DNA of 61,103 nt from a virus (IMGVR_UViG_3300030090_003848:1-61103), one strand, 5' to 3'; counted from the first letter of the stretch, positions 1-25,577 are shown. Program-made: numbers and translations. Notes: generated by a model not told the origin, from the letters alone.

Positions 1-74
1 CCATGCAGGCCGGAGAGACTCTTTTCCTCATGGACTAACCCCAGAAATTCTCAACCAGTTAACTACCCAAGATC

Positions 75-278: not shown

Positions 279-316
279 CCCCAGAAATTCTCAACCAGTT
301 AACCACATCACATATC

Positions 317-874: not shown

Positions 875-910
875 ACCCCAGAAAATAAAAACCAGTTAAC
901 CATCAAGATC

Positions 911-1054: not shown

Positions 1055-1089
1055 CCCCGAAAATTCTCAACCAGTTAACCATCAAGATC

Positions 1090-1533: not shown

Positions 1534-1556
1534 ATCAAAAAAAGTTCATTCAGTTA

Positions 1557-1584
1557 TTGCAAGTCCAATTCTTTTCCCTAGAAT
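1557..1584 (+). promoter_or_regulatory. Sigma70-like promoter TTGCAA-N16-TAGAAT, probably leaderless
   Basis: In an AT-rich gap; ATG 1591 is 6 nt after the -10 box. Confidence 0.6.
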
Positions 1585-1590
1585 ACCACC

Positions 1591-2820: not shown

Positions 2821-2864
2821 ACCTCTCATTCAAAGTTAACTCGAAAAAAGAAAGACCAGATACC

Positions 2865-3821
2865 ATGTCAGATACCACTAGCCACCTCGACGCCATGACC
2901 GCCGACGAAATCAACTCGATCTTCCAGATCGTGATCAACCCCAGCCGGATCGTGACCACCGGAAAGAATGATGATGCCAAGAAGGCCATTCTGGAGGCCG
3001 CTCCGCCGGAGGACCGTGACGAACTCGCCAAGATATTCAACTCGTCGGGCCGATTCCTCCCGACCGCCAACACCTGCCTCGGGGAACTCCGCTCCCTGAA
3101 CAACGCCATGATCAAGGAGATGGTGAGCGCGGACGATGGCCGGAACTACGACGGCCTCGAAAAGACAGGCCGCGCCAAGACATACATCGGGCAGCTCAAG
3201 GACTACGACCGCGCCTTGGAAATCTTCGATACCTACTCCCCCCAGATTGGGGCCTGCGTTTCCAAGATCCGCTCCGAGTGGGAGTCCCTCAAGGAGCAGG
3301 GCCGGTTGGAGATGAAGCAATACGGGGACGGTTTCGAGTTCCCCGAGGTCGAGGATTTCCTTGCCAATTCCGATGCCAGTTTCGAGATCGACACGGTCAT
3401 CACCGACCAGAAGATCTTGAACTCGGCGCTGGCCGAGCAGGCGGCGAGGCTCAACGCCCGTCACAAGGCCGACAAGGATCGCCAGATCCGCGAGATCGCG
3501 GGTCGCCAGATCAAGCTCATCCTTGACCAGTTCAAGGCGTGTGAACAGCGGCTCCGCGAGGCTGGCACCGTTGTCGATGGCAAGCGCAAGCGGCTCAAGA
3601 AAAACAACTTCGAGAACACTCTCGATGCCGCCGCAAACGCGAAGAAAAAGAACTTCGCTAACATCCCCGAGGTCGAGGTCGCGGCTGCTACCGCCGCCTC
3701 CATCATCAAGGATGTGGACAACCTGCCCGACAACCCCGCCGAGCGGGCCGACATGGCCGACGAGATCAACAAGGCCCACACTGCCCTGAGCAGCAAGATG
3801 GCAGCCGCCGGATTGCTCTAG
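2865..3821 (+). CDS. Helical protein between AAA and vWA genes (possibly DUF3150-like)
   Basis: 318-aa ORF; family suggested only by synteny and helical character. Confidence 0.6.
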   Translation: MSDTTSHLDAMTADEINSIFQIVINPSRIVTTGKNDDAKKAILEAAPPEDRDELAKIFNSSGRFLPTANTCLGELRSLNNAMIKEMVSADDGRNYDGLEKTGRAKTYIGQLKDYDRALEIFDTYSPQIGACVSKIRSEWESLKEQGRLEMKQYGDGFEFPEVEDFLANSDASFEIDTVITDQKILNSALAEQAARLNARHKADKDRQIREIAGRQIKLILDQFKACEQRLREAGTVVDGKRKRLKKNNFENTLDAAANAKKKNFANIPEVEVAAATAASIIKDVDNLPDNPAERADMADEINKAHTALSSKMAAAGLL

Positions 3822-3841
3822 AAAATAATTTGAGAATCCCC

Positions 3842-3869
3842 TTGTAACATACCAGAATCCGAGTAGACT
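3842..3869 (+). promoter_or_regulatory. Sigma70-like promoter TTGTAA-N16-TAGACT
   Basis: Intergenic; ATG 3879 lies 9 nt downstream. Confidence 0.5.
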
Positions 3870-3878
3870 CCAAGAATC

Positions 3879-5492: not shown

Positions 5493-5510
5493 CTAAAATC
5501 ACCACCACCC

Positions 5511-5717
5511 ATGAACTCAGAATACAACAACTGGAACGAAGAGCATACGGTTATGATCCTCGACGGCCCTATCGTCCGCCCCGCCCCTACTCCGAAACGC
5601 GACCTGACCCCCGAGGAGGTTGCCGAGATCGAGGCCCGTGCCAAGGCGATCAAGGAAAAGAACACTCTGAGCGACTGGCAACTGCAACGCCGCGCCGAGA
5701 TCAGAAGGTGCAGCTAA
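5511..5717 (+). CDS. Hypothetical protein
   Basis: Tiles with neighbours in the early operon. Confidence 0.7.
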   Translation: MNSEYNNWNEEHTVMILDGPIVRPAPTPKRDLTPEEVAEIEARAKAIKEKNTLSDWQLQRRAEIRRCS

Positions 5718-5737
5718 ATCTTAACTCAAGAAATAAA

Positions 5738-6256
5738 ATGTCAACTACCATTACCGAAAACGTCTGGTCTCTACTCCGCTTCTCCTCCGAGGATCAGCGG
5801 GTGTGGAAAGCCGACAAGACTGGAAGCCTCTACCTGACCGACCACAGCGGCGACGGGTGTGGGGCACCCTACGGGGACAACGTCGGGAACCCCGACCAGT
5901 GCAGTGACGGCCCGCTCAGGATCGCCGTCGAGGAGATCCGAGAACTCAAGATGGCCTACGAGTGGAGCCGTGCATACGGCATCCGGTGCTATGTCCCGTG
6001 CTTCGCGGAGGCCCATGAGGACAAGCGGGTCAAGGTTAGCTGCCAGCCAGCCGTGGGCCTGTTCCTTGCCAAGCTACTCAAGGTTCCCGCAACGCTCACC
6101 ATCGGGAGCGATACCCGAACCAATGACGTTGAGCGGATGGTGGTGCTGCCCTTCCTCGACCCCCTCCCCTATGGCCGCGCCCAGACGTATACTCTCTGGG
6201 AGCCTAAGCGGCCCGAGCTAGACCTGTCAGAAGTTAACATAGAAAATAGTCTTTGA
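5738..6256 (+). CDS. Hypothetical protein
   Basis: ATG 5738 (MSTTIT) after an A-rich leader. Confidence 0.75.
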   Translation: MSTTITENVWSLLRFSSEDQRVWKADKTGSLYLTDHSGDGCGAPYGDNVGNPDQCSDGPLRIAVEEIRELKMAYEWSRAYGIRCYVPCFAEAHEDKRVKVSCQPAVGLFLAKLLKVPATLTIGSDTRTNDVERMVVLPFLDPLPYGRAQTYTLWEPKRPELDLSEVNIENSL

Positions 6257-10172: not shown

Positions 10173-13100
10173 CTAGCGTTCCACTGTCAGAAATCTTTCA
10201 CGTTCCCCGTGTGCCCGCATCAAGGTCCGCAGTCTCTGCTGGCCTTGAGCTGTTCTCATCAGAGACTCTGTGACGTTCTTGGTCGGGACAGGGTTTTCCA
10301 TGAACCCTGCGAACAGGAGCTTGGACCGTCGGTCCCCGTATCGGGCGGCGGTCATGGCCCCGTAGATACTCTGGTTCGTCATGCCCAAACCTTTCATGCC
10401 GCGCATGGCCTGCATCAGTTTCTGGTTGACCCGTTTCCTGTCAGACAGAACTGACTTATGGACCGCCTCTACGGCTCCCTCGGTCATTCCCTTGGGAGTG
10501 AGCAGTTCATTGAAGGCTCGGCCAGCTCTCCGATGCTCGTCCCTTAACTGGTAAACAACTCTTGAGAATTGGTCTTCAGGCTTATAGAAGCGAGGCCGGA
10601 CTGGCAGGGAGTCATAAACGACAATCCCAAACGGAGAGTCTGCGAACGACTCCGGCGCGTCACCGAACCCTGCCTTGATAGCTTCAATCGCCTTGAGCGG
10701 AGTCCGAGGCCCATACGCTTCCCGACCGACATACTTTAGTTTGTTGAGCATACGGATATGCAGCGGCTGCGATGACTCAACAATAGGCATATTGGTTTTC
10801 GCATTGCGGTTCTCCATTACGTCTATGATAGAACCCGCTAGGATCTGCTCTCCCAAGTATGGCTGGAGGATAGCAGCGGTAGTCATCTTCTCGACTGCGG
10901 TGAACGGCTCTCCCCGAACCATGTGTTCCATGCCCCGAAGCAGGGGGTCCACGATAATGGAGAACGGGTTGAGGTAGGTAAGATCCAGAGAACCTATCTC
11001 CCCATCATCAGTCTTCCACAACCAGAAAGTATGATTTCTGAGATAAGGGGGCAGGGACATGCGGAATGCCTCGTCCTCGTCTTCTCCCATCTCGCTCAGT
11101 AAGGACCGGAGCAAAGTCGGAACAGCCATGCTCAACCCTCCGGCGATTGCAGTCATCGATAGAACCCGATTATACCCCCTCCGCCTCATCACAGGGTTCT
11201 TGGAACGTATGTCCCTGAACCCTCTTTTGTAGGTGTTAACAACGATGCGTGGGACTTCAGCGGTGAACCGGATGAACGGTGCGAATACGAGTCCCCATCC
11301 CGAGCCGCTTATTTTTTTGATGATCGGGAGAGCGCGTGAGTATGACTGGGCAGTGTCACCTATGATCTCCGCAGCCTCTTGCTTGAGTTCCAGATCAGAC
11401 ATATTTGCGTATGTCTGCTGGTCCGGCGGAAGCAACCTGTCTGCTTCTTGGGCTTTCCTGAGAATAGCCAGTTCATTCTCGTAGTAACCGATCTTGTAGA
11501 ACGAGTCCATTGCAGACGCCAGTCGAGCCAGAGTGTTCATCATGCTCGTATACTTAGCCCCGCCCTGCTTTATCAGGTTCTTATCAGAGAGTTTCTTTTG
11601 CAGGTTAACTATCTGCTCTTGGACCCCATCGAATGTTTCTTCGCCATTGATGAGCCGGAGCATGATCTGTGAGCGGACTTCGTTACCGAATACGTCCAGC
11701 CCCTCAAGCTCTCGTAGGTATGCATTGGTAGCCGCCTTGTTTCCTTTGAGTGCCCTGCGAACACCCTGCCAAGCAGACATCCCTCGGCCCTCGCCTACGT
11801 CCCCGCTCCATATGTCCTTGCCAGCTTTCCAATACCCTTGGGCTGGACCGAAGAACAGGACGTTTCCGAGCATGTTCCGTAAGAAGAATCCTACCGAGAA
11901 CAGGGTCTTGAATCCCATAGCCGAACCTGTCGCTAGCTGGGCTGCTCGCATGGACCCGTGCAAGAGTTGTGACGAAGCGTCATCCCCAGATCTGGGAGTC
12001 TGCTGGAACATAGGCCGGATACTATTGTAGATGTCTGGGTGGACATACATCCCAGCCAATGGGTTCAACCCACTATCGGCACTCGTCGAGAGAATCTTTT
12101 TGTATTCGATGAACTCACTGTAGTTCTCTCCCAGTGCTTTGTTGTATTGATCCGCAGTCAAGAGCCAAGGAGTCTCCGCCTGCGTCCCCGCCTGTTTCAT
12201 TTTCTCAAGGAACGACTGGTGTGCCGCGATCTTTGCAACGGTTCCAAACGAATACAAAAGGTTGTCGATGCTGGACTCGGGGAGGTTATTGGCTCCCATG
12301 AGATCCGCCAAGGGCTTAGGTATGTCAGACCTCTCCTTGAGGTTTTTCACGATAGCCTTCAGTCCACCAGACATTCTGGGGGCCACTGTCTTGGGCATGC
12401 CAGCCAGTTCAAATGCTGACGCGAAGTCTTGGGCCTCGGTCAGTTCTCCCTGACCTCTCCATGAGTTGAGGAACTCTGCGGCCATCTGGAATCCGAGAGA
12501 TGCTCCTCCGTTAGAGGACTTTGTGTATAAGCGGTAAGACTCATCTTTCGCGTCCTGCAAGGTAAACTCTCGGTTACCTGCATTGTCGCGCATGAGTTCA
12601 TCGGTCTTGTTTTCAATCCACTGTCCCCGCATAAACTCGATAGCCGCTTCCCTGACCGCTACATCTTTTTCTTCTTTTGAAGTTAAGATGCGCTTCACAT
12701 ACCCAGAGTCAGAGAACATCTGATACCTGCGGGTGATGTAAAGTCCCATATTATTATCGAACTTAGCAATAACATCGTGGCCTCCCCGACCGAACAGGTC
12801 TCGGGCTTTTGCGGAAAGCTCATCAGTAAGACGGCGGAGGTCTACGATAACGGTAAAGAGGTCTGGAGCAGTATCGGCTAGTTCCGAAAGGGCAGCGTCC
12901 CGACCACCCAGAGCTACCTGTTTGTTGGCCATCCTGCTTTTTTCCAAGGTCTCTTTGAACGACTGTTCTTCTATTTCTGTTTCCGCTCCCTTGCGGGCAT
13001 CGGCCCTTTTCCTAGCTTCATTGATGCGTTTGTTGAGCCGGTCTTTAGCTTCTTTAATTCTCTTCCTGCTTTCGGAACCCAGCTTGCGGATTTCTTCTGG

Positions 13101-16100
13101 GGTCTGATTTCCATCAGCCCGCATTTCGCGAACTATAAACGCTATGTTTTCTTTGTCTTTCGCGAACTGGTTTTCCGCGTCCTCGATCTCCTGTGACATG
13201 ACCACTCTGGACCTCGCCTTGATTTCATCCAGCCGTTTGATGTGCGCTTGCTGAAGATCGTTGTCTGGGTCTGGGTCGATATTGTCCAGTGTTCCCACAG
13301 CAGCTTGGATAAGATCCCAAGGAACATCGTCGGGCGAAGAGTAATACTTATCAATCGCGGCGGTATACTTGTCGTGGTATTCCTCGACCATTTTCTCGGT
13401 AGTCCGCAAGAACGCATCTCTCTGGCGGGCATACTTCTGAACAGTCGGGTCCGTCTCGCCAACGAACATCTTAGCGAACTGTCTTTTCACTAACTTAAAT
13501 CCACTACCCGCTCCTGCGACGGGGAGTTCAAGCAGTTCAATGAAGTTTCCGTAGTCAACCTTGTCCGCGTCAAACTCAGATGGAAGATCTGATTCATCCC
13601 CGAAGACCCCCGAAAAAATGTATCTCTCGTCTGCTGGATTAAATCTAGCTTCCAATGGAATAAGATTAAAGTCTTCGTCGAGAGTGACTGGTGCTGCTGA
13701 CTTGATCAGACGCGAATCTCTGACCGCGATGTTCATGTCGTTGTCATCAAGAACTGGGAAGTTACCGTCTACGTCCGTAGCTACCCCGTTCTCTGAAATC
13801 AGCATCCCGTCATATTCGCTCAGGACGGCATCGACGACTTGTTGATTTTCCCAGAAATTCCAATGCCCGTTTGCAAGGTTACCTTTGTTCTTTTTGATCC
13901 ACTCTTCTATTGGGGTTGCCCGCCGGTCGATCACCTCATCTGTAATCTTGAACTCCGTGTCTTTATTCGGGCGGTTTTCATACAGCAAATCAGAATACTT
14001 TTCCCAGTCTTTACGCGGGTCGAATAGCTTATCTACTTTTAAGTAGACGGGGATAATCTCCAGACTTCTTGGGGGCGCTAGCTTTCCACTTTCTACGACA
14101 TTGTGGTTAACTTTGTTCTGCCCAAACTCCCGTGCAGAGTCTACATCAGGAGTAAAGAACGTCAGGTTGGTTGCCGTGCTAGTGCTTACTATATCGGACC
14201 CCGTCTTTTTCGGGTCGAAGATGGTCAGCACCCTATCGGTCCCGTGGTAGGCTACCCCGATTTTCCAGCCAGCAGCCCGTGCCGCCGCGTCTACCATTGG
14301 GCGGAGTTTGTTTCGGATCTCCTGCCCCTTCAAAGAGTTTATCTCTGGGGCGGGTTTGTCTTCTTCAATCTCATACTCAACCTTGGACCCCCAAGGTTTC
14401 ATAGCCATGATCAAGGCCGACTGCTCGTCGTAGGCCAGATGTTTTTCGACAAGCTCCATGAACGCCTTGCTCCCCATGCTCTCCTTAGCTTCGTTAAGGA
14501 CAGACATGTATTCCTTGTTAATCGCCCGAAGTTCTTTGACCGTCGGGTCAGGTAGAATCGACGAGATGGGTTTAAGGAATGACGGATCAGCGGGGAATCC
14601 GCTAAGGCCAATGGCCGACGGGAGGTCGGTGCTAAGACCCTCTGGGTCTGGGGGAAGGTTATCTACCTCAACTGCTCCGGCACCAGCTCCATCAGGATCT
14701 CCTCCGGCACGGGCGTCGGGTGATCTGGATACTCCAGCATCAGGAAGTCGCTTGAGTCGAACGCTTTCTGTGTAGGATTTATCTCTAGCAACCAAGCTGC
14801 GCTCGACTGGTGTGGCCCAGTCTGGGAGGCCATATCCTCCAAATCGCTCCTCGATAAGGTTCCTTGCTTCGCCATCGTCATTTGTTTTATTCCATATTTT
14901 ACGGGACTCATCAAGAACTGTTTCTTCGACCCCCTTCTTAGCGTAGCTCGCGGCCTCCCGTTTCTGCTCTGCGGTAAAGAGAGTCCTGACTTGCTCCCAC
15001 GTTATCGACTGAATTTCTCTAGTAGATAAGTTAGTCCCGTCCCGCCCGTTGATAAACGCGGCAGCGTCTTGGTGCGCTCTGAGGAACATGGCGTAGACCC
15101 CCATCATGCCAAGCTCGGCGTTGCCACTGCTGCTGATGCCAGTCCCCCCGAAGTTGTGGGTAACTTCATCACTGCCTCCTGCAACCGGAAGCATGAGCGC
15201 GGCACCAACCGCGTGTGTGTCCACAGTCCCGTCCATGATATTGGTCGGGTCTGCAATATTGTTGCGGAAGTTTCTGACCTTGTGCTGATTCCCGAGGAGG
15301 TCACTGTGGACCTCGGGGTCGTCGGTAAGGAAAGAATCAACCGCCTTTTGGATCTCGGGGTATGAACCCCAACCCACCTTTGCGATCTCGCCGTTCTTGG
15401 TCCGTTGCAACTGGACCCTGTTTCCTTCTGGGGTGATAATCGCGTAACCTCTCGGGTGATTCAAATAGTCAAAAGTCCTAACGAACCTAGCGGGTAGCGG
15501 ACGCATCCTCGCCAGTTCTGCGTTCCTGCGTTTCTTGAACGCCTTGTCACTTTCGCCCTTTTTCTGTGGTTCAGGTTCAAACGAGGCTGCTTCTTCGATG
15601 AGCTGGGCTAGGGTCTTGCCCTCCATGATGACTACCATAGCCTCGGCGCTCTTCTTAGCCTGAGCTTTTTTCTTGGCATGAGCCGCCGCAGTAAGCCCAG
15701 TCTTAGGAATGTTCTGGGACATCTCGATGAACGCATCGGCCATCTCCTTATCGAAGACAGTTTCCTGCTGTTTAGATACCACCTCCATTACTCGGCCAGC
15801 CAAGGACACGTTCTGGAACCAGTCCTTCTGTGGGCTGAGAACCGCGATGGTCGCAGCAGCTTGACCCGTCGTTATGTTGTATCGGGTAGCAAAGTCTTGC
15901 GCGATACGGTTGGCCCCCTCATACCAGAGCTTGGCCCGCTCCCTGATCTCAGGGTGCATAGTGTCATGCAGGTGAACCAAGTTCTCAACCATTCCCTTAT
16001 GCACACTCTCATACACCTCGTCTGCGAGCGGGCGCATCTTATCGAAGAGATCATTCTTGAAATCAGACTTCCATTTTTTGGCGGCGGCCAAAGTAGTCGG

Positions 16101-19100
16101 CGTGTCTGGGTCACGAACAAACTCGATCAGCCCTCTAACAACTTCCATCTGGGCTTCGTCCCCAGTGTATGGAATTTGCCCTGCCTTGGCCTTTGCTGGG
16201 GCAACGTATAGCTTCTTTGCAATCCGCGTAACAAACGCATCAGTCACCTTACGGGCTGATTTTATTTCGCTTATAACGGGCGTGGTTACCTTCGTGTCTG
16301 AGAACGCGGCTTTGTATCTGTCGTTCAGATACTTCAGTTCCCTGTAGGCCGCCGTGTCCTCACCCCTCGCCTCAACCGCTCGGCCTTTGCGGTTCTTCCG
16401 ACCTTTGAATATCTGGTATCCAGCAACGGTGGGCGCGTTGAGGACATAACTTTTCTGACGGGCGTAGTTCTCAAAGGTGCTGTCCTCCGCTCTGTCGCTA
16501 GCCCCCTTGCCTGTCGCGGTCCTGAAGCGAGCAGCGGGTTTGATATCCAAAGCAGAAATATCCAATGGCGCGTCCACCGCAGACAAATCTTCTGCCGTAT
16601 CGACCATGATCCCTGAACCCAAGCCGACTGTGCCTTCGCTTATAGCCTTTTGCCTTACCTCCGCCTTCGTTAGCTTTTTAGGTTGCGGCTTTGCCCTGAG
16701 ATTAGCTATCTGGATAGTCAGATCCAATACTTCTTCCAGTGCTGTGTTGGCGCTTTCGCTTGCCTTGTCTCCAAGGAGGAGACGTTTGATTATATCAATA
16801 AACTCTTGGAATACTGACTTATCGGGTGAGGCGGGTAATTTTCTAAGGAAGTCTTGGAAGTGGGGGTTTGACCAAGCGTCAGCGATAAACTCCTCTATAC
16901 TGTCTGCGGCGTAGCCAAGTTTCCGGTCGGCGGCAAGCCCGCGATGGAAGACATCTGGGTGCATCCTGAGTTCCTCTTCAATCTGTGGCTTCACCCAATG
17001 ATAGAGCTTAAACAAATCCCTGATCGGAGCAGGAACCTTGGCCACTGCCTCGGGGTCTTTGAACCTACCACGACTAATATAGTTCACGGGCAGTAGGTCA
17101 CGTATCTCGGTATCATTGGGCGGTAATTTCCCTTCAGTGACGGCCCGCCCACCATCAGTGCCTTCAGCATACACCCAATTATCTAGTGCTTGTCGTTTGC
17201 GTGACGGTCCACCGCTTGTTTTCGAGACTCCCGCTTCGTATAGCTTTATCATGCTGGCTGCGTGTCCAGACTCATGCGTGAGTGACATGCCCCAAGCCTG
17301 TGCTGGGGTGAAGTGCCGCCCAAACGGCAATGACGTAGTAATGGAGATTTGACCTTGGGGTCCAGTCGCCGCGGTCCCCCTTAGACCAAACTCAGGCCCA
17401 CCAGTTTGCGTCTTAAATTTGTGCAGTCTGCTCCGACCAGCTTGGGGACGATCCTCGGGTTCCCACTCTTCGATCCTGCGCTGCTCGGAGGGTGTCAGTT
17501 CCTCTTCAGGCTTAATCGCATGCCAAACTACTCTGGTCTTATCAAAATCTTTACGGCCACTCGGACTCATGCCGTTCCGTAAAATAAGCAACGACCCGAG
17601 ATACCTAGACTTAGTGTCTTTGGGGATCAGGTCGATAACCTCCCCCAACGACATAGACAGACGCATTTCGCCAGCGCCCCCCTCTTCAGGCAATGATTTT
17701 TTTGCTGCCTGCCAGCCCTTTGTTTCCATTATCTCAGCGAACTCTGCGTCCCCTTCATCGGCGGGGAACAAATCAGCAGATTCTGGTCCGAACATGATCC
17801 CTGAACCCAGAGCCGTTGCCTTGCGCGGCTTGGCCACAATCATGCTCGCGGTAGATGCGTCTTCGTCAATGTCGAGCACTTCAGATATCTCATCCTTGTA
17901 TGCTTTCAGTGGACGGTGTAGCTGGTAGCCTTTGGAGGTCGGCCCTTCTTTCTTACTCCTGTCGTAATAAACTGTGATGTAGATTTCTCCCCCGTCTTTT
18001 ACGGCATCGTTCGCTTGTTGGAGAACCCTGCGCCTAGCTCCTTTTTCTTTAATGACGTTAAGAACATTGGACAAAGTTGCAGTATCGGCTTGGCCCCCGT
18101 GGATCTTCTCGACCGCTTCCTCAACGCCCTCGGGGCGGGCATACGGGTCATACACATAATTTGTCACCCCCTTGCCTGCTAAGTATTCAGTTGCCAGTTC
18201 TGACTTGCCGCCGCCGATGTCGGCATTGACCGTTCCGGCCACCCAGTTTTTAACTCTACCAAACAAAGCCCCCCGTTGTGAAAGGCTGGTATCTTGAGAG
18301 CCTATTTTCTGGGTAACGCCTTTGAGATCCCATACATCACTTACCTGTATCCCTGAACCCAGATCCAATGTTCCCTGCTCCAGTGGCTGGGCTGGTCTGC
18401 GGAGATCGAATCCCTCATCGTAAGCGTATGCCACTTTGGCTGCATGATACTCACGCATCACTTCCATCAGCCTTACATCTGACATGTCATACAAGCTGTA
18501 GGAAATTATTTTGTCGCCACTATGGGAAAAGAACTCTATCTCGTCTTCATATTGGTTATCCCTGATATCTTTCCAACGCTCAAATTCTCTTTTGATCCAC
18601 GACTCGGGGTCGTTAATCATCCTGCCTATGAATATGTCTTCGATTTCGGTGAAGCCTTCACTGGCGTAGAAATCATAGAGTTGCTTTCCTTCAATGCCGC
18701 GCCTGTCGGTAGATCTGAAAAACAAAGCAATGTCAGAGCCTGCCTCATCCATCTTTCTAAGAAGTGCCTTGAGCATAGCCCTGCCTACTCCTTTGGATCT
18801 AAATTCGTTTGGAACGACAATATGCCGGAGATAAACATGCGGTTTTATCTCTTGGTCAGGGGCATCTAAGAAACTTTTTGTAAACCCTTCGCGTGCTTCA
18901 ACAGCGAACGCAGGGAACATGGGGTCTTCCCCCGCTTCGATTGTCTCGGAGATAAGGTCTGTGAAGCCGAGATCGGCTGGGTCTACCGCCGTGTAGACAA
19001 GACCAGTAAACTTATCCCGTTCCTGCACTCCCAATGATTCGGCACCCTTGACGGCTTCGAGATTTAGATCCCGACCCGTCAGCGTTATGCCCGATGCAAC

Positions 19101-22100
19101 TGCAAGCTCTTGTTCGTCAGGTTGATCGACGGACTTATTCATCCCCGCTTGTTTCTTGAGCAGCTCAAGGACAGCTAGGGGGTTATCCGCGTCAAATGTT
19201 TTAATGTTACTGAGGCTTCTAAAGCCGAGCTTCAGCGCCCTCAGTTCATTAACTACTCTGTTTATCGCCGTGTTAAGTTCTGGAGATATGTTCTTACGGG
19301 AACGGTAGTAACCCAATTTCTTCAGGAACCGTTGGAAATAACGGATAACATACTGGAGAATGCTGGGGTTAGTCCGAAGGAAAGCTACGTCTTCTTCAGT
19401 AGAAAATCCGTTCGTGGCCCGATCCGCGTGTTGGCGAAGCATTTCCTCCATTACTTGGATCTGAGTGGTTGGGTCTCCAGCCCGCCACTTCTCCTTCATC
19501 TTCTCTCTCATCGAGGCAGCTCCCGCAGAGTCATCGCCATACTCATCAATCGCTTTGTATGCATCGGCAATAGTCATCGCGCCGATAATCTCCTGTTGCT
19601 CTGTGCGAGTAATCGCAGCTACTGATGCGGCGTGGGCAATCTCTTCGTTAATGACGACCGAGATAATCCCCCGAAGTGTTTCGGGGGGAACTTTTCTCCC
19701 CGCGTTCCGACGCTGTAGGTCCACCATTAGCCCGTTTAATTTTTTAGGGTTTATGGTCAGGACTCCGGTATCGTTGTCCATCTTGGCCATCTGAGGGATA
19801 GTCTCGCTCACCTCTGTCCTTACTTCAGGTGGAATGACGGCTCCTTTAAGATACCTGACTATCCGCTCATAAGCGTCCCCTTCTTCTTTCTTAGCCGTAG
19901 CGTCAACTCCGGTTGCTTCTTGAATCGCAGAAGACAAATCCGCTTGCTCTTGCTGGGCAGTCGAGACCCCCTTGGTAATCGTATGGACTACCGTGTCGGG
20001 AGTGATCGGCTCTTTTGGGATCGTGTTTTCCGACACAGGGGTAAACGGGAAAACGCTTTCCTCGATAAAGTCTACGGCTTGCTTGGACTTTTTGTTGGGC
20101 AGTGCGAGGAACTCGTTAACCGTAATTAAATCTTTCTTTTTACGACGGCGAGCGCCTGCTTCCAAAACAGAAGAATGCGAAAGATCCAGAACGGCAGAGA
20201 ACGCGGCATCGAATCTAGGGGTTGCCCCCCGAAAAAACGAGCGGATGGCCATGATGATTCTTTGGAACGCGCTGTAAACAGCGGGTCCGCGATCCCCCGT
20301 CATTGTTTTTACAAACTGTTGGAAGTCAGTTGACGTAAGGAAGTGGGCAACGAACTCATCTACGTTTGCCAATGCATCATTGATCCGTGAATCGTTAAAC
20401 GAGAACACTCCAAGGTTTGGCAGTCTGCTCGACGGAGTAGTGATCACATTCCTTATGGCATACTCTGAACCCATCGCAGCGTAGTCTTTCTTGAGTTCAG
20501 AAATAGTGGCCTCCAAAGTTTGGATCGCAGCCGTTTCCTGTGGGGTTCTAGCCGATTCGGGCTTCCCTGTAATGTTAGTTACATAAGCGTGGATAAGCTC
20601 ATGCAGAAGAGTGTCTGCCAGCCCCCTCGGATTATGGCCATTTATATTCAAGGAGATAGCCGGAGTTCCATCGGAGAGTCTGTCAAACTTGCCCGCGTAA
20701 GGTTGATTTGTTTCGTCAATCGACAACTCAATAGTCTTAATAAAATTAGGAGACTGAAGAAGGAGCCGCGCCAGCGATACAAGATGCGTGTCGTATTCTT
20801 TCTGAGCGCGTTGCGAAAGCCCAGCAATTCTGTTGAGGGCCTCAATGATAGAGTCGGGGTTTCCGCTCTCTAAGCCCAACGCGGCTATCGCGTCATTGTT
20901 GAGCATCTGGACATACCCCTTGCCCATGTTGTGGGGCTGTGACCGAAGAAAAAGAGTGCGAACAGATTGCTTAACGTAATTAAAGAAGTTAAGCGTTTCT
21001 AAATCGGTAGCGGGTTCACCCTTAATGTTCTCAACTGTATCTTTAATCAGGGACAGGTAATCCGCGTCAGACTTAGGAGTCCCTTCAATAGAATTAGAAG
21101 TAAGCCCCATCAGACGGAGCGCATCCCTGACTGGAGCAGCCATGTCGAATTGGCGTGTCCTTAGTTCTTTTTGAAACAGGAGGCTGATAGAGTTGGACTT
21201 AGCGTTGCCCTGAGCCATCCAGTTCACAAGATGACCCCAAAGGGTTTTATTAGTCGTCCGGTTAAAATCAATGTTAGTTGTCTGGAAGACTTCGTTCTGA
21301 ACAATCCCTACAATCCGACGACGAAGTGCCGAGTCAGCAGTCATAGCTGCGACGGCATTAGCTTGAACTTCTTTATACGCGGCTGTGATCCTCGCTGGGG
21401 CGAACGGAGGGGCTATCTCTTCTTGAGGCGGAACGTATGTGTCTTCTGCTTCTACCTCTGGGTTAAAGTCTGGGTCACCTTCTAACTCAGAAACTTCGTC
21501 AACAGATAACGTAGACACAAAAGATTCTTTCTGGTGCGCCAACCTAGACTCCTGTTCCGACACATATGCATCAGCAATGCGGCGTCCGGCACTTGGTAAT
21601 GATGAGTAACCAGAAAAATCTGCCCCTTCAAACAACGCCTCCATTGAACTCAATCGAAGTTCTAACAGCGCAGCTTCAGTAAACTCGGGAGCAAGTTCTC
21701 CTTTAGAGGGTGCGAGAAACGGGGCGACTGACTCGTTAGATTCCAGACGGTCCAAGATATCCTGATTGGAAATTTTTTCGTCTGGGTTAAACGGGGAGGT
21801 CACCATGCCTTCTGGGTCTGCTAATCCCTTAGCCCGAAGATTAACTACGCGCTCAGTCAACTTGACCAACCTTGTGTAATCTGGTTGCAACGACAACACG
21901 CGGTCCATAGGTGTAACCGCAGACACAAGGCCCCCTGACTCAGGGATAACTATATCAGAAACAAAAATCTTGTCGTTAAACTCAGTAAACCTGAATGAGG
22001 GGTTTATCTGGTTTTTAATAAAAGACCTTACGTTTTTATCGACAACAACAGGAATCCCACGCTCAAGGAAAGTGAGCATATCCAAGGGGTCGTTGTTAAA

Positions 22101-25100
22101 CATGCCGACGCCGAACCGATTTACGAAAATTTTCCCGTCCCCATAGGCAGAGTTCATGGGGATGTCCCCTTCCAACGGTGAATAAGAAATACGAAGGAAC
22201 TTACTTTTGATTCCTTCAGCAATCTTTGCATTTGCCGAGCGGATAAACGCATCCGAAGTGGTCCGCTGATTAACGGGAATCCCCAGTCTTTTTAGTTTAG
22301 CAGGCGTAATGACATGTCGGAACCCGCTTGCTATAAGATTGTCAATCGCTTCGATTTCATCAGGGGCCTCAGTGACTTCGTCCAAGGTAACGTCCGAATC
22401 AATCTTGAGATTTGAAAGGGCTTTGACTCGGTCTTTGAACGCTTGCCCGATCAACTCTTCAGCTTGTTCTGGACTCACCGCTTTTCCTTCTTGGACACGT
22501 TTCCGCAAAGCCCGACCGACCGATGATTCGCCAGCAACTTCAGCGGAAGAAGCCTCACGGTTCATCTTAACGTAAAGATCTTTTGCCCGATTTATTTCGG
22601 CAACCCGCTTCCCGAATCTTGCTTCGATTGCTCCTGCTTCGCCCACCCTGCGGGGGTCTAGTATTTTAGACCGCTGCGGGGGCAAGGCTTCTTCGATAAC
22701 AGGTGGCGCGGGGGTTGGAGAAATAAGATCCCTTACAGATTGGTGGTCTGCATTTTCTACATAGCTAGATGAACCAGCAGGCATATTCATCCGGTTCATC
22801 AGAGCGCCTTTAATTTCCATCGTGGCTGGGTTGGCGTTCGTAGCTACGCTGGCCTTGTCTGCCATGACATCAGCAATAGCTGACGCTACGGAATCGGGGT
22901 TGACCTTATCCTGCAAAGCCAACTCCATTTGAGGGTCCGAAGTAATACCGGAGGGGAGCGGAGTTTCAGTTTCTTCCGCCGCAGGCTCTTCCTCGACAGT
23001 CAACTGGAGCAGGTCGTTGGGAGCGATGTCTGCCCTAGCGTCCTTCCGTTTCATGTCGGACACGGCTTCTTGAAATGCCTTAGCCGTTATTGGTGACCCG
23101 TTCGCGTTGAGATCAGCGACGGCCTCATTGATGATGTCGTCATAAAACTGAGCCATTTGGTTGGACCTAGTTATGGCTGGCCGGATAGATTTAAGGCCGA
23201 GTTGAACCGCCGGAACAGAACCACCCATTACTCCTCCCAAGGCAACCGCATGCCACGTTTGCTGCATCCGCTCTAACATGGGGGTGTCTTCATGGAGAGC
23301 GACATCGGTTATCATGCCGTTGACAAACTCATCAATCCCTTCCTCAACTCCTTCGTCTACAACATTCTTGGCTACACCTTTGAGACCACCAAAAGCATAC
23401 TTCTTCATAGTAGCTTTGATAGCTTTCTGGGCAGAGCTAAGGAGGTCACCGTCCAGACGCCCAGTGATGCCTCTGGCTACAACCCGCATATCTTTTGGAG
23501 TCAGTCCTTTAAGAAGGGCATCTTCAAGGCCCCCCTTACCTATAAGAGAAAACGCCGACGTAAGGACGCCAGTAAATGTTCCTGCCATAAGCATGGCCCC
23601 TAAAGACCTGTCGTGCGCTTCTTCTTCGGTGATGTCGGGGTTCTGCTTTAACTGGTTATACACGGCCCCGTAAGTAGCCGACCCTGACCTAGTAGCCGCA
23701 GGAATAAATACAGCGGGAGCAATACCTAGTTTTTGGGCGAGGGTTCCGTTGTATGTCTTCAGTAATTGGACTGCTCCCTCGGGAGAACCTTTGACTAAGC
23801 CTTTTTGAATAAGATCTTCAGCTTGTTCAAAGGCGGATTTCCCTGCTTGGCGTCTGAATTGGTTAGACGTAATTGCTTTTACAACGCCCTTAGCCGCGAG
23901 GCTTGCCGACGTTTTCCCACCCGCTTTCAACGAAGCATAAGCAAGTGCGCCAGTTCCACCTATGGGAGCGGTTCCGACCGCCAAAAGACCAGTAGCCGCT
24001 ACATCCATAAGCATGGGGAAAGCTGTTTCGGCTACGTCTTGAAGGAATGGAAAATCCTCCCCGAACACAGACGCCAGTTGCCTGCGGTCGGCATTTTTCT
24101 GAGACACAGAAGCCAGATAATCTTTAGCCGGATCGAGTCCAAAAGCCGCAGCCACTCCAGCAAAGGGGAGCAAGAACCCATTAACAATGGATGCCTTCAC
24201 GCCTGCTGCCCGTTCTTTGAAAACATTATAGTTGTCTTCGTCCGCTACGAAACCCTCAAGAATCTTGTAGTCGGGAACTCCCGCCCTACGACCAATCATA
24301 AGAGATTGGTTCCAGTCCTCGGACACACTGTCTTGTGACGACAGGAATTTGTCCATAGTTGTGAACTCAGACTTGAGGACATTCACACGCTGTTTATCGA
24401 GCATATCCTTAACGCTCGGGCTAAGGTTGGGGTGCGCTGCTAGTGTCTTGTCATAAACGTCTTTGTTTAACATCGCGGGTAGCGGCATGGACGGAAGTCC
24501 GAAACCACCGAACCTCAAGTTCTTACCCACTTCGTCGTCCTTGTCGTAGGACTTAAACATTTGTTTCTGCATCGCGTTATCATGGATAATCTGCTTCATC
24601 GCAGCCTCCATGTCTTCGGGACGCATATTAAATTTAAGCGCATACTTAGCCGCGAGTTGGCTATGGTCTATGCCTCGGGCTTCTTCGACTGCCTTTCTCC
24701 GTTGTTCAGCTTTATCAAAGGCTTCCTCTTGCCCCATGATCCGGCTTAGTAGGCTTCTTCCAAATCTAGGAACAGCTTCCAGCGTCTTTAGAATTTTATC
24801 CCCCGTATCAAATTCTTTTTCGGCTTGTGCAGTCGATAAGCCATCAAGCTGAATTGCAAAATCGGGGTTCTGTTCCCGCTCTTCCTCAAGTAAGTTAACG
24901 GCGCTTACTATCTTTTTTAATTTGTAAAGCGGTAGCTTATGCCCGTCAGGGGTTTCTAGCTGTGGCATAACCGAGAGCGCATCCCGCATGGAAATGTTTG
25001 CTCTGGACGAAGCCTTCAGGGCGCTGACAAGGCCCATTTTTTCGGCGTTCTCTCCTACAAGGATCTCCCCATCAGATAGCCTCGCAATGGGGAGTTCTCC

Positions 25101-25577
25101 TGACTCGACCTGTGACCGGAAATTTTCGTCTTGCCGCGTGTTTAACGTGGATTCTACTTTTTCTTTTAGGGGCTGGAGTTCTTCCAGATATTCCGCAGAC
25201 GGGGCTTCTACGGAAGACGCTTGCAAGTAGTCCTTAAAAGACTGCTGGTCTGGGTCGTTGGGAGAAAGCGACTGGTAAAACGATCTCGCCCGTTGGTCAA
25301 ACGAACTGCCTTTTTCGAGGTCAGAAATCCTCTGCTCAATTTCTTCTGCGTTCTCCCCGTCAGAAGAAAGAATCCCTTCTTGTTGCAAAGAAAGGGTAAA
25401 CCCTTCTTTGATCTGACCCTCCACTGTTGGGTTGTAAGCTCTTGCCTTAATGTATTCTTCCCGAAGATAGTCTCCGTATTTCAAGCGGCTTTCGAGAGGA
25501 TCATCATAGGGATTCTCGGAGGACCATTCAGAAAAACCAAGTGGCGTAACAGGTGGGGTATCAGATTGCTCTGTCAT
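10173..25577 (-). CDS. Giant polyvalent (probably virion-injected) protein, 5134 aa, with zincin, GNAT, methyltransferase, glycosylase-like and ADP-ribosyltransferase domains
   Basis: HELIH (aa ~1659); degenerate NEEIAH (~1977); GNAT EFRSKGVG..FY...GF (~2258); MTase DIGGG..YDPY..SNVLNVI (~2453); HESGH..EEFIA (~2768); WY..LSPQ..KVRNF..TVDTH..Q..TW (~3247); YHGT..FFT..PVYL..YDG..IKSA (~3777); helical N- and C-terminal regions typical of large ejection proteins. Confidence 0.85.
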   Translation of the reverse strand: MTEQSDTPPVTPLGFSEWSSENPYDDPLESRLKYGDYLREEYIKARAYNPTVEGQIKEGFTLSLQQEGILSSDGENAEEIEQRISDLEKGSSFDQRARSFYQSLSPNDPDQQSFKDYLQASSVEAPSAEYLEELQPLKEKVESTLNTRQDENFRSQVESGELPIARLSDGEILVGENAEKMGLVSALKASSRANISMRDALSVMPQLETPDGHKLPLYKLKKIVSAVNLLEEEREQNPDFAIQLDGLSTAQAEKEFDTGDKILKTLEAVPRFGRSLLSRIMGQEEAFDKAEQRRKAVEEARGIDHSQLAAKYALKFNMRPEDMEAAMKQIIHDNAMQKQMFKSYDKDDEVGKNLRFGGFGLPSMPLPAMLNKDVYDKTLAAHPNLSPSVKDMLDKQRVNVLKSEFTTMDKFLSSQDSVSEDWNQSLMIGRRAGVPDYKILEGFVADEDNYNVFKERAAGVKASIVNGFLLPFAGVAAAFGLDPAKDYLASVSQKNADRRQLASVFGEDFPFLQDVAETAFPMLMDVAATGLLAVGTAPIGGTGALAYASLKAGGKTSASLAAKGVVKAITSNQFRRQAGKSAFEQAEDLIQKGLVKGSPEGAVQLLKTYNGTLAQKLGIAPAVFIPAATRSGSATYGAVYNQLKQNPDITEEEAHDRSLGAMLMAGTFTGVLTSAFSLIGKGGLEDALLKGLTPKDMRVVARGITGRLDGDLLSSAQKAIKATMKKYAFGGLKGVAKNVVDEGVEEGIDEFVNGMITDVALHEDTPMLERMQQTWHAVALGGVMGGSVPAVQLGLKSIRPAITRSNQMAQFYDDIINEAVADLNANGSPITAKAFQEAVSDMKRKDARADIAPNDLLQLTVEEEPAAEETETPLPSGITSDPQMELALQDKVNPDSVASAIADVMADKASVATNANPATMEIKGALMNRMNMPAGSSSYVENADHQSVRDLISPTPAPPVIEEALPPQRSKILDPRRVGEAGAIEARFGKRVAEINRAKDLYVKMNREASSAEVAGESSVGRALRKRVQEGKAVSPEQAEELIGQAFKDRVKALSNLKIDSDVTLDEVTEAPDEIEAIDNLIASGFRHVITPAKLKRLGIPVNQRTTSDAFIRSANAKIAEGIKSKFLRISYSPLEGDIPMNSAYGDGKIFVNRFGVGMFNNDPLDMLTFLERGIPVVVDKNVRSFIKNQINPSFRFTEFNDKIFVSDIVIPESGGLVSAVTPMDRVLSLQPDYTRLVKLTERVVNLRAKGLADPEGMVTSPFNPDEKISNQDILDRLESNESVAPFLAPSKGELAPEFTEAALLELRLSSMEALFEGADFSGYSSLPSAGRRIADAYVSEQESRLAHQKESFVSTLSVDEVSELEGDPDFNPEVEAEDTYVPPQEEIAPPFAPARITAAYKEVQANAVAAMTADSALRRRIVGIVQNEVFQTTNIDFNRTTNKTLWGHLVNWMAQGNAKSNSISLLFQKELRTRQFDMAAPVRDALRLMGLTSNSIEGTPKSDADYLSLIKDTVENIKGEPATDLETLNFFNYVKQSVRTLFLRSQPHNMGKGYVQMLNNDAIAALGLESGNPDSIIEALNRIAGLSQRAQKEYDTHLVSLARLLLQSPNFIKTIELSIDETNQPYAGKFDRLSDGTPAISLNINGHNPRGLADTLLHELIHAYVTNITGKPESARTPQETAAIQTLEATISELKKDYAAMGSEYAIRNVITTPSSRLPNLGVFSFNDSRINDALANVDEFVAHFLTSTDFQQFVKTMTGDRGPAVYSAFQRIIMAIRSFFRGATPRFDAAFSAVLDLSHSSVLEAGARRRKKKDLITVNEFLALPNKKSKQAVDFIEESVFPFTPVSENTIPKEPITPDTVVHTITKGVSTAQQEQADLSSAIQEATGVDATAKKEEGDAYERIVRYLKGAVIPPEVRTEVSETIPQMAKMDNDTGVLTINPKKLNGLMVDLQRRNAGRKVPPETLRGIISVVINEEIAHAASVAAITRTEQQEIIGAMTIADAYKAIDEYGDDSAGAASMREKMKEKWRAGDPTTQIQVMEEMLRQHADRATNGFSTEEDVAFLRTNPSILQYVIRYFQRFLKKLGYYRSRKNISPELNTAINRVVNELRALKLGFRSLSNIKTFDADNPLAVLELLKKQAGMNKSVDQPDEQELAVASGITLTGRDLNLEAVKGAESLGVQERDKFTGLVYTAVDPADLGFTDLISETIEAGEDPMFPAFAVEAREGFTKSFLDAPDQEIKPHVYLRHIVVPNEFRSKGVGRAMLKALLRKMDEAGSDIALFFRSTDRRGIEGKQLYDFYASEGFTEIEDIFIGRMINDPESWIKREFERWKDIRDNQYEDEIEFFSHSGDKIISYSLYDMSDVRLMEVMREYHAAKVAYAYDEGFDLRRPAQPLEQGTLDLGSGIQVSDVWDLKGVTQKIGSQDTSLSQRGALFGRVKNWVAGTVNADIGGGKSELATEYLAGKGVTNYVYDPYARPEGVEEAVEKIHGGQADTATLSNVLNVIKEKGARRRVLQQANDAVKDGGEIYITVYYDRSKKEGPTSKGYQLHRPLKAYKDEISEVLDIDEDASTASMIVAKPRKATALGSGIMFGPESADLFPADEGDAEFAEIMETKGWQAAKKSLPEEGGAGEMRLSMSLGEVIDLIPKDTKSRYLGSLLILRNGMSPSGRKDFDKTRVVWHAIKPEEELTPSEQRRIEEWEPEDRPQAGRSRLHKFKTQTGGPEFGLRGTAATGPQGQISITTSLPFGRHFTPAQAWGMSLTHESGHAASMIKLYEAGVSKTSGGPSRKRQALDNWVYAEGTDGGRAVTEGKLPPNDTEIRDLLPVNYISRGRFKDPEAVAKVPAPIRDLFKLYHWVKPQIEEELRMHPDVFHRGLAADRKLGYAADSIEEFIADAWSNPHFQDFLRKLPASPDKSVFQEFIDIIKRLLLGDKASESANTALEEVLDLTIQIANLRAKPQPKKLTKAEVRQKAISEGTVGLGSGIMVDTAEDLSAVDAPLDISALDIKPAARFRTATGKGASDRAEDSTFENYARQKSYVLNAPTVAGYQIFKGRKNRKGRAVEARGEDTAAYRELKYLNDRYKAAFSDTKVTTPVISEIKSARKVTDAFVTRIAKKLYVAPAKAKAGQIPYTGDEAQMEVVRGLIEFVRDPDTPTTLAAAKKWKSDFKNDLFDKMRPLADEVYESVHKGMVENLVHLHDTMHPEIRERAKLWYEGANRIAQDFATRYNITTGQAAATIAVLSPQKDWFQNVSLAGRVMEVVSKQQETVFDKEMADAFIEMSQNIPKTGLTAAAHAKKKAQAKKSAEAMVVIMEGKTLAQLIEEAASFEPEPQKKGESDKAFKKRRNAELARMRPLPARFVRTFDYLNHPRGYAIITPEGNRVQLQRTKNGEIAKVGWGSYPEIQKAVDSFLTDDPEVHSDLLGNQHKVRNFRNNIADPTNIMDGTVDTHAVGAALMLPVAGGSDEVTHNFGGTGISSSGNAELGMMGVYAMFLRAHQDAAAFINGRDGTNLSTREIQSITWEQVRTLFTAEQKREAASYAKKGVEETVLDESRKIWNKTNDDGEARNLIEERFGGYGLPDWATPVERSLVARDKSYTESVRLKRLPDAGVSRSPDARAGGDPDGAGAGAVEVDNLPPDPEGLSTDLPSAIGLSGFPADPSFLKPISSILPDPTVKELRAINKEYMSVLNEAKESMGSKAFMELVEKHLAYDEQSALIMAMKPWGSKVEYEIEEDKPAPEINSLKGQEIRNKLRPMVDAAARAAGWKIGVAYHGTDRVLTIFDPKKTGSDIVSTSTATNLTFFTPDVDSAREFGQNKVNHNVVESGKLAPPRSLEIIPVYLKVDKLFDPRKDWEKYSDLLYENRPNKDTEFKITDEVIDRRATPIEEWIKKNKGNLANGHWNFWENQQVVDAVLSEYDGMLISENGVATDVDGNFPVLDDNDMNIAVRDSRLIKSAAPVTLDEDFNLIPLEARFNPADERYIFSGVFGDESDLPSEFDADKVDYGNFIELLELPVAGAGSGFKLVKRQFAKMFVGETDPTVQKYARQRDAFLRTTEKMVEEYHDKYTAAIDKYYSSPDDVPWDLIQAAVGTLDNIDPDPDNDLQQAHIKRLDEIKARSRVVMSQEIEDAENQFAKDKENIAFIVREMRADGNQTPEEIRKLGSESRKRIKEAKDRLNKRINEARKRADARKGAETEIEEQSFKETLEKSRMANKQVALGGRDAALSELADTAPDLFTVIVDLRRLTDELSAKARDLFGRGGHDVIAKFDNNMGLYITRRYQMFSDSGYVKRILTSKEEKDVAVREAAIEFMRGQWIENKTDELMRDNAGNREFTLQDAKDESYRLYTKSSNGGASLGFQMAAEFLNSWRGQGELTEAQDFASAFELAGMPKTVAPRMSGGLKAIVKNLKERSDIPKPLADLMGANNLPESSIDNLLYSFGTVAKIAAHQSFLEKMKQAGTQAETPWLLTADQYNKALGENYSEFIEYKKILSTSADSGLNPLAGMYVHPDIYNSIRPMFQQTPRSGDDASSQLLHGSMRAAQLATGSAMGFKTLFSVGFFLRNMLGNVLFFGPAQGYWKAGKDIWSGDVGEGRGMSAWQGVRRALKGNKAATNAYLRELEGLDVFGNEVRSQIMLRLINGEETFDGVQEQIVNLQKKLSDKNLIKQGGAKYTSMMNTLARLASAMDSFYKIGYYENELAILRKAQEADRLLPPDQQTYANMSDLELKQEAAEIIGDTAQSYSRALPIIKKISGSGWGLVFAPFIRFTAEVPRIVVNTYKRGFRDIRSKNPVMRRRGYNRVLSMTAIAGGLSMAVPTLLRSLLSEMGEDEDEAFRMSLPPYLRNHTFWLWKTDDGEIGSLDLTYLNPFSIIVDPLLRGMEHMVRGEPFTAVEKMTTAAILQPYLGEQILAGSIIDVMENRNAKTNMPIVESSQPLHIRMLNKLKYVGREAYGPRTPLKAIEAIKAGFGDAPESFADSPFGIVVYDSLPVRPRFYKPEDQFSRVVYQLRDEHRRAGRAFNELLTPKGMTEGAVEAVHKSVLSDRKRVNQKLMQAMRGMKGLGMTNQSIYGAMTAARYGDRRSKLLFAGFMENPVPTKNVTESLMRTAQGQQRLRTLMRAHGERERFLTVER
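16605..18362 (-). repeat. Dispersed junction repeat CATGATCCCTGAACCCA (16605-16621, 17793-17809; 13-bp core at 18349-18361), encoding LGSGI
   Basis: Exact DNA identity including synonymous positions; each copy lies at a domain boundary of the giant gene. Confidence 0.9.

Follow-up and report, generated by a model that had tools for sequence, protein, structure and literature searches.

A giant phage protein and its modules

The virus record IMGVR_UViG_3300030090_003848:1-61103 (hereafter the window, which is the whole IMG/VR record of 61,103 bp, with an estimated completeness of 98%) contained an open reading frame (ORF) at positions 10173..25577 on the minus strand, which encodes a protein of 5134 aa and occupies about 25% of the 61.1-kb phage genome. 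Based on its domains and on comparison with relatives, the product is a giant phage polyvalent protein. Its conserved scaffold, which has a HELIH zincin embedded in it, spans aa 1-2159 and 3992-5134 and encloses a magazine of exchangeable enzymatic modules, or cassettes. The boundaries of the cassettes carry a short junction, of the type hydrophobic-x-S-G-[IV] in this clade.

Seven pentapeptides that the initial annotation had placed between domains were all present: LPSGI (aa 874), VASGI (2160), LGSGI (2406, 2590 and 2986), LPSAI (3652) and IFSGV (3987). Reading from the N terminus, all on the minus strand, the N-terminal scaffold (aa 1-873, 22959..25577) was conserved in the full-length relatives compared and had hydrophobic stretches at aa 460-482 and 661-679. 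It is followed by the LPSGI junction (22944..22958), which lies in a variable acidic linker and was never a cassette site, and by the middle scaffold (aa 879-2159, 19101..22943), which contains the backbone zincin motif HELIH at aa 1659-1663 (window 20589-20603) with a conserved DEFVAHF downstream. The variable zone begins at VASGI (19086..19100) and comprises cassette 1 (aa 2165-2405, 18363..19085), the LGSGI at aa 2406 (18348..18362), cassette 2 (aa 2411-2589, 17811..18347), the LGSGI at aa 2590 (17796..17810), cassette 3 (aa 2595-2985, 16623..17795) and the LGSGI at aa 2986 (16608..16622). Next comes a module at aa 2991-3651 (14625..16607), with a conserved core at about aa 3186-3590, and then LPSAI (14610..14624), where a second variable slot begins. 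This slot holds a cassette at aa 3657-3986 (13620..14609) and closes with IFSGV (13605..13619), which terminates an ADP-ribosyltransferase (ART)-type tail, IPLEARFNPADERY. The C-terminal scaffold (aa 3992-5134, 10176..13604) was common to 44 giant proteins found at E ≤ 1e-20 when it was used as the query.

The enzymatic domains listed in the initial annotation were upheld for the methyltransferase and the ADP-ribosyltransferase, and less firmly for the others. Cassette 1 was GNAT-like, with matches to Pfam Acetyltransf_7/1/10 (E 5e-4 to 1.5e-3; four GNAT models in total, E up to 2.5e-3) that were all below the cut-offs, and its predicted structure was mostly of low confidence. Cassette 2 is solidly predicted to be a class I S-adenosylmethionine (SAM) methyltransferase. 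Its Pfam matches were weak, the core of the AlphaFold2 model had a predicted local distance difference test (pLDDT) of 85-98, Foldseek returned 18 matches at E ≤ 1e-3, each of those listed being a SAM methyltransferase, and residues D304, G306, G307 and G308 of the glycine-rich motif were nearly invariant (alignment A1). Cassette 3 was assigned as zincin-like from its motif (HESGH at aa 2768, with EEFIADAW), the model confidence being only moderate, and appeared to be a weak paralogue of the scaffold HELIH domain. No Pfam match was obtained for the zincin modules and no significant PDB sequence match for the zincin cassette, and in the Protein Atlas this cassette matched nothing but unnamed viral clusters.

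The module called glycosylase-like in the initial annotation matched DUF7178 (Pfam E 4e-18; predicted template modelling score 0.75). Structural comparison of its model by VIA-align placed HhH-GPD glycosylases or the DUF2419 queuosine hydrolase in 8/8 of the top rows and 18/25 of the top rows (Z 7.8-4.6, which is middling for helical models), consistent with an HhH-GPD glycosylase-like fold. Foldseek gave no match at E ≤ 1e-3 and the PDB sequence search no significant match for this module, and DUF7178 was not mentioned in the literature searched. The DUF7178 core contained many residues invariant over 47 sequences (SPQKDWFQN, HK.R.F..NI, T.DTHA, QS..WE..R). The cassette of the second slot matched ART-PolyVal at 32.6 bits, slightly above the Pfam cut-off of 31.2. 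Within this cassette, 35 nt at window 13919..13953 (aa about 3875-3886) were replaced by 2 nt, an in-frame indel of 11 aa, as seen in three independent runs (contigs) as well as in the relatives P0003 and P0004. A 129-aa cassette found in other relatives is termed ASCH-like from a language-model lead only, with no significant match in a PDB sequence search, and Pfam named none of the cassettes specific to the giant proteins P0004-P0007.

Modelling of the individual segments placed the junctions outside the confident domains where such domains were predicted. All four junctions covered by the model of aa 2150-3000 (its residues 11-15, 257-261, 441-445 and 837-841) were in segments with a pLDDT <50, and those flanking the methyltransferase lay directly outside its confident core. 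More than 1000 methyltransferase homologues (E ≤ 1e-10) aligned within model positions 258-444, i.e., inside the two junctions. Likewise, the junctions at aa 2986 and 3652 were in low-confidence ends of the DUF7178 model, beside its confident core. The expectation that structure prediction would confirm the boundaries was thus borne out next to the methyltransferase and DUF7178 cores, but not at aa 2160, where the model did not discriminate.

The ORF combines a GNAT-like domain, a SAM methyltransferase, two HExxH modules, DUF7178 and ART-PolyVal, the latter being a signature Pfam domain of the polyvalent class, in a phage context given by a large terminase, a DNA polymerase and a primase. More distant DUF7178 relatives bear the precomputed domains PF18857, PF18834, PF18798, PF18823 and PF18838, which we take to be members of the LPD/InPase set. 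Polyvalent proteins were described by Iyer, Burroughs, Anand, de Souza and Aravind (2017; PMC5512222), who proposed that the domains are released by embedded zincin-like peptidases, by analogy with viral polyproteins; what the initial annotation had taken as established on this class agrees with that account.

Gain, loss and replacement of cassettes

Besides the cluster entry of the window itself, a search with the magazine region recovered seven giant relatives, and two metagenome loci, L084 and L085, were 95-96% identical to the window gene. The blastp breakpoints of the seven relatives (P0003-P0009) against the window protein fell at aa 2160, 2406, 2590, 2986, about 3636-3652 and about 3950-3987, and thus coincided with the junctions, as the initial annotation had predicted for domain gain and loss in homologous giant genes. 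Eight architectures were found among 11 sequences (L005, which has the same architecture as P0005, was left out of this count). The window has the order GNAT, methyltransferase, zincin, DUF7178 and ART; P0003 and L085 have the same order without the methyltransferase; in P0004 the zincin has been exchanged, at both of its junctions, for the ASCH-like cassette, which L084 also carries there. P0005 to P0009 and L004 have other cassettes in both slots, the ART cassette being replaced by other modules in P0005-P0009.

About 20 scaffold relatives were nearly alike outside the variable zone, where almost all of their differences lay. The length of the variable zone ranged from 49 aa (P0188) to 2070 aa (P0184) in 19 sequences, with the scaffold anchored at both ends by blastp in 19/19. 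As clustering of the zone segments merged DUF7178 with ART-type segments, only zone lengths and junction lists were used. At the lower extreme, P0188 (3250 aa) represents an empty scaffold, with just one LETGIT where the middle scaffold passes into the C-terminal scaffold (aa 2060-2115). Its sister P0187 (aa 2060-2340) corresponds to the same protein with one cassette of 250 aa added, which has LASGIT on one side and LGTGIT on the other. LETGIT and LGTGIT have Thr at the Ser position of the motif.

One cassette indel and one putative cassette loss could be followed at the DNA level. In L085, the single junction present consisted of the upstream flank of the junction at aa 2406, the repeat and the downstream flank of the junction at aa 2590, and the two blastn high-scoring segment pairs overlapped by 18 nt, which indicates that the methyltransferase indel crossed over inside the 15-nt junction repeat. 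In a contig of an independent marine run (X17), position 16604 was joined to 17793, so that the 1188-nt zincin cassette was skipped, with 17 nt that fit either side. No contig of runs X10, X12 and X17 covered the zincin cassette at ≥88% likeness, a gap that is in itself no proof, and of these data only the joint in X17 was used; contigs of X10 covered 15202-16621 and 17797-19213. All read runs consisted of assembled contigs, in which minor variants and excised circles are invisible. At the onset of the variable zone, nucleotide identity to L084 and L085 dropped from ~98-100% to ~55-80% in the 20-aa bin starting at aa 2160.

Taken together, the comparisons show that the junction is where cassettes are added, dropped or exchanged for others, and that for one or more of these indels the crossover lay within the repeat. 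Another kind of variation was seen at window about 16040-16340 (aa 3080-3180, in the N-terminal part of DUF7178), where identity to L084 and L085 was 40-75% amid 95-100%. There were no junction motifs at the edges of this patch, and ordinary homologous recombination between alleles, giving a mosaic, is therefore its suggested origin.

The junction in DNA and in peptide

The pattern [LIVMF]xSG[IV] occurred in 6 copies in the giant protein, compared to 0.69 expected from shuffles; the loose pattern also had a few matches inside domains (aa 223, 897, 1217 and 1881). The three LGSGI junctions share TGGGTTCAGGGAT on the coding strand (13 nt), and the corresponding plus-strand 13-mer, ATCCCTGAACCCA, had exactly three copies in the 61-kb record, all at these junctions. 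The 9-mer core had 3 matches vs 0.65 expected, a number reached in 2/100 shuffles, and neither the 13-mer nor the 9-mer had a copy elsewhere in the record. The junctions at aa 2590 and 2986 had 17 nt in common. Given the peptide and the codon usage of the gene, simulation gave P about 1.5e-5 for a run of at least 13 nt common to all three LGSGI, and identical Gly/Ser/Gly codons at the three had P about 1.7e-4.

Similar homogenization was found in the relatives. TCA-GGG-AT was present in 7/9 central junctions (window, L004 and L005) vs 0/11 peripheral copies of the motif, and identical Ser and Gly residues in the scaffold shared their codon just 31-35% of the time between clades. The repeats were extended by ATCATG twice in the window and in L085, by ATCACG twice in L084 and by ATCACGGC twice in L005, giving identical junction pairs of 17 nt (window, L005) or 19 nt (L084). 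The junction DNA thus consists of direct repeats of 13-19 nt that are homogenized within a genome. Two of the junctions read GGGATCATG, with an ATG just past the motif; internal translation starts were considered and rejected, clade 2 and L084 having ACG at this position.

The conservation in DNA noted by the initial annotation therefore holds for the central junctions, including the 17 identical nucleotides in two of them, but is not a general property, since the junction at aa 874 and those of other lineages keep the peptide with synonymous changes. At aa ~874, all 9 representatives compared, from 4 clades, had the L, S, G and I of L-x-S-G-I, set in an unconserved acidic linker, and no cassette changed there. 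The codons there were unlike those of the central junctions, and the Ser codon differed even between genomes that were 96% identical. Motif copies numbered 5-8 vs 0.5-0.7 expected in P0001-P0009, L004 and L005, and 6-8 in P0179-P0184, and decreased from P0185 to P0188 (4, 3, 2 and 1), the motif being enriched in each member of four sister clades. There was no enrichment in the other 73 DUF7178 giants or matches (39 observed vs about 27.5 expected) or in 26 more distant scaffold relatives (0-3 copies each).

Other lineages had junctions of their own. In the P0189-P0192 clade, the scaffold was 42% identical and the junction was x-S-G-L-G-P. Cassettes of this clade nevertheless corresponded to those flanked by SGI[MT] (ASCH-like, 69%; P0187 cassette, 73-77% identical). 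The cassettes are thus more alike than the scaffolds, and each takes the junction of its scaffold. The ART-type tail differed between lineages in its continuation: IPLSQRFD was followed by 4-6 residues and I-[RL]-[FY]-[SQT], and then by a lineage-specific end (SGIT, SGLGP, IRYSRA, IRFQPA, IRFALDP or INFSRRG). In L007 (giant ORF at aa 886-3241), [FY]ALDP occurred six times, with synonymous variation at all degenerate codons save the aromatic one, and one copy came directly after the Pfam ART-PolyVal domain.

A broader comparison was made with 84 carriers of the methyltransferase module that had at least 30 aa on each side, counted without the close relatives of the window. An identical 4-mer was present in both flanks in 12/84, compared to 2.15 ± 1.46 in mismatched controls (maximum 8 in 200). 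Examples of such flank motifs were DISFMP (five copies), IRFQ (three), R[FY]QP (three) and L[FY]Q (four). Lineages with a motif of their own at apparent module boundaries were L007, L006, L022, L042, P0024/L077/L080, P0100, P0110, P0070, P0032, P0209 and P0213. Besides these examples, the boundary motifs in other lineages were [FY]ALDP (six copies), FSRRG (three), LSRGR (three), LFGG (five), [RK]FSLR, IRYS[RK]A (four) and FQPA (four), with synonymous codon variation wherever DNA existed.

The junction peptide is therefore specific to the scaffold lineage rather than to the cassette, and is under purifying selection at the protein level, being kept even at aa 874, where the codons vary and cassettes do not change.

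Putative processing, exchange and precedents

Two HExxH modules could be considered as processing enzymes. The HESGH domain of cassette 3, which the initial annotation had considered for this role, does not qualify as a general processing enzyme because it is a dispensable cassette, being absent in P0004, L084 and P0006-P0009. The scaffold HExxH (HELIH or HELTH, at about aa 1607-1714) was present in 18/18 of the P-numbered proteins of the SGI clade, the empty scaffold included, and the scaffold HELIH zincin is the leading candidate for the putative processing. When this zincin (aa 1560-1860; alignment A3) was folded as a complex with Zn and a junction segment of 40 aa, the score was 0.14 (mark, 0.32), which is evidence neither way.

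The giant ORF was the last gene of a minus-strand block, the first gene of which encodes the large terminase (recognized by PHROGs and Pfam, E 4.6e-17). The record also encodes a family-A DNA polymerase, a primase, an exonuclease, tail or structural proteins, and an amidase endolysin (Amidase_3, 40656..41207 on the minus strand); no tRNA genes were found in the record. Most structural genes had no family match in Pfam or PHROGs, and among ~27 neighboring ORFs these databases named no portal, capsid or prohead protease. Judging from the position of its gene downstream of the large terminase and from the literature on the class, the giant protein is probably carried in the virion. A protein with a Laminin_G_3 (concanavalin-like lectin) domain, encoded at 48625..49797 on the minus strand, is likely a receptor-binding tail protein. 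No annotated phage relative was found by blastn against phage records, and tblastn against these recovered 4 records only, covering the DUF7178 or methyltransferase parts.

The first part of the window (1..6000) had a GC content of 58-60%, compared to ~48-53% in the remaining genome, and may be a block of different origin. Long minus-strand ORFs (2868..3779 and 3918..5426) overlap plus-strand ORFs in this block, which is typical for a GC-rich coding region. The plus-strand ORF at 3879..5492 encodes 537 aa, in which Pfam recognized DUF2201_N ("putative metallopeptidase," 1.1e-9) together with a VWA-like DUF2201 domain (1.4e-12). In PHROGs it belongs to an "HNH endonuclease" family, an apparent misnomer, and its product is possibly a separate protease.

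The observations can be combined into a mechanism with two parts. In the first, the short junction repeats would recombine, either inside one genome or between relatives that co-infect a cell, and cassettes would thereby be deleted or inserted in frame; we regard this part as probable. In the second, the junction peptide would be recognized and cleaved during or after delivery, most likely by the scaffold zincin, so that the effectors become separate; for this second part, the chances seem evenly balanced. The explanation as a whole, with both parts, is favored by a small measure. The dual role of the junction, as exchange boundary and as cleavage site, would match that of VENN in CdiA.

Several points weigh against this mechanism. 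Cleavage at the junctions is something we infer, as is packaging in the virion, with no portal, capsid or prohead protease recognized. The junction between the methyltransferase and the ASCH-like module has been lost in L084 (AKPRK-VA-APVTRG, compared to AKPRK-ATALGSGIM-APVTRG in P0004, aa 2585-2600), the direct fusion at L084:4050-4120 reading AKPRKVAAPVTRG with no LGSGI; the junction is thus not strictly needed, and two modules can stay fused. Breakpoints between diverged alleles also occurred inside modules, at ~aa 2335 (L084) and at aa 3080-3180 (L084 and L085). Regarding the role of the junction as microhomology for in-frame exchange, the claim of the initial annotation is supported by the crossover inside the repeat in L085 and by the 17-nt joint in X17, but is weakened by these internal breakpoints and by the junction missing from L084. 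The X17 joint is itself marked "between: not known," and its shorter side measures 42 nt. Selection would purge indels that leave the frame as well as in-frame ones that break inside folds, so breakpoints in linkers are partly expected anyway, and replacement of a cassette between genomes with the same neighbors needs flanking homology only, not the junction repeat. The mostly low confidence of the GNAT part means that structure does not discriminate for a linker at aa 2160. Finally, the relatives are few, all metagenomic and not independent, the close ones being 95-96% identical.

The strongest alternative is that the junction is a feature of linkers and recombination only, the protein never being cut but acting as one multi-enzyme polypeptide or being threaded out unfolded, with the motif kept by homogenization and as an S-G hinge. 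The identity of the central junctions in DNA, their homogenization within genomes and the loss of a junction in L084 with the reading frame intact all fit such a protein. Moreover, the zincin-bearing N4 virion RNA polymerase, ArdC and TraC1 are described in PMC5512222 as packaged or transferred unprocessed. However, homogenization of exchanged DNA does not account for the peptide at aa 874, which is invariant in four clades with varying codons and no cassette change, nor for the different boundary peptides that other lineages keep with synonymous variation. A mere hinge would not require the lineage-wide identity of four or five residues, and the same cassette bears the junction of its scaffold. 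This alternative is therefore considered rather unlikely.

Less probable still is that the junctions are cut during procapsid maturation by a separate phage protease, either an unrecognized prohead protease or the DUF2201_N protein at 3879..5492, and not by the embedded zincin after injection. Such cutting would be similar to the trimming of internal proteins by the head proteases of T4 and phiKZ. The DUF2201_N and VWA-like domains of this plus-strand ORF, the dispensability of the cassette zincin and the largely family-less structural genes, which could hide a prohead protease, leave room for such an enzyme. On the other hand, no prohead protease family was detected by Pfam and PHROGs in the ~27 neighboring ORFs, the type of junction tracks the scaffold lineage, and the scaffold has its own conserved HExxH domain. 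That the repeats are due to chance, or are functionless remnants of an old internal duplication, is very improbable: short motifs do recur in a protein of 5134 aa, and the loose pattern is also found inside domains, but 6 copies were observed vs 0.69 expected, proteins of three sister clades have 5-8 copies each vs 0.5-0.9 expected, and each non-homologous cassette breakpoint that was observed falls at a motif position.

Parts of the favored mechanism, exchange at the junction and cleavage by the scaffold zincin, have parallels in phages and bacteria. Internal proteins of T4 (including the injected ADP-ribosyltransferase Alt) and inner-body proteins of phiKZ are packaged in the head, where they are trimmed at short consensus sites, and are delivered together with the DNA; these are separate small proteins or proteins with few sites, and a dedicated prohead protease is used. 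We know of no cassette exchange at these head-protease sites. In T-even tail-fiber adhesins and integron-type arrays, short conserved sequences flank variable segments and act as crossover points, and the modules diversify in this way. Unlike these, the exchange described here takes place in frame, inside a coding sequence, and involves whole enzymatic domains, with no dedicated recombinase identified.

The closest functional precedent is the VENN motif of CdiA, which both delimits the exchangeable CdiA-CT regions and is the precise cleavage site (PMC9424206, PMC3150448). According to the same sources, heterologous modules of the polymorphic toxins CdiA and Rhs function when fused at the motif, and this architecture enables recombination of acquired modules. 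Like CdiA (VENN) and Rhs (PxxxxDPxGL), the giant protein has a short peptide that sets off its variable part and serves as the point of module exchange. In those systems, each protein has one C-terminal toxin, with a paired immunity gene and orphan cassettes downstream. Here, by contrast, several internal cassettes are arranged in tandem in one uninterrupted ORF, with a junction on both sides, in a phage carrier, with no separate gene between the cassettes and no immunity genes. The protein works like the CdiA/Rhs systems at the junction, yet is not a member of them.

With the polyvalent proteins of PMC5512222, it shares unrelated domains (ART-PolyVal, methyltransferase and zincin-like peptidase) in one huge phage polypeptide. 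It goes beyond those described there in having a scaffold with a variable slot of 0 to at least 5 cassettes, a scaffold-specific junction peptide and DNA repeats with an indel crossover. The main text of that paper contains neither "linker" nor "boundar" and names no cleavage-site or junction motif, and its supplements may hold motif alignments. Judged by titles and the beginnings of abstracts, the literature searched on cleavage sites of polyvalent proteins and on phage polyproteins described no junction motif.

These results may be extended to other giant proteins in the form of a "junction code." Each scaffold lineage would have its own boundary peptide (SGI[T] here; SGLGP, [FY]ALDP, FSRRG, IR[FY]S-type, ISFMP and L[FY]Q elsewhere), which would be the cleavage site of its embedded zincin, cutting the injected polypeptide into separate anti-host enzymes. 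As near-identical short DNA repeats encode it, the same peptide would mark an integron-like point of in-frame capture and excision that works without a dedicated recombinase. We put this forward tentatively, as a possibility that is on balance doubtful. Processing by an embedded peptidase was proposed in 2017 without candidate sites, and the lineage-specific junction, the best candidate yet for the cut site of such giant proteins, supplies exact residues, which makes the proposal directly testable. Repeated flank motifs also offer an easy way to find, from sequence, the limits of unknown effector domains in giant genes of metagenomes, and several of the cassettes delimited in this way match no known family. 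Ranging from an empty scaffold to at least 5 cassettes, the architecture also illustrates how the injected arsenal of a phage can be rearranged without loss of the reading frame. If the junction code is true, co-infecting phages could trade whole effector domains without a dedicated recombinase.

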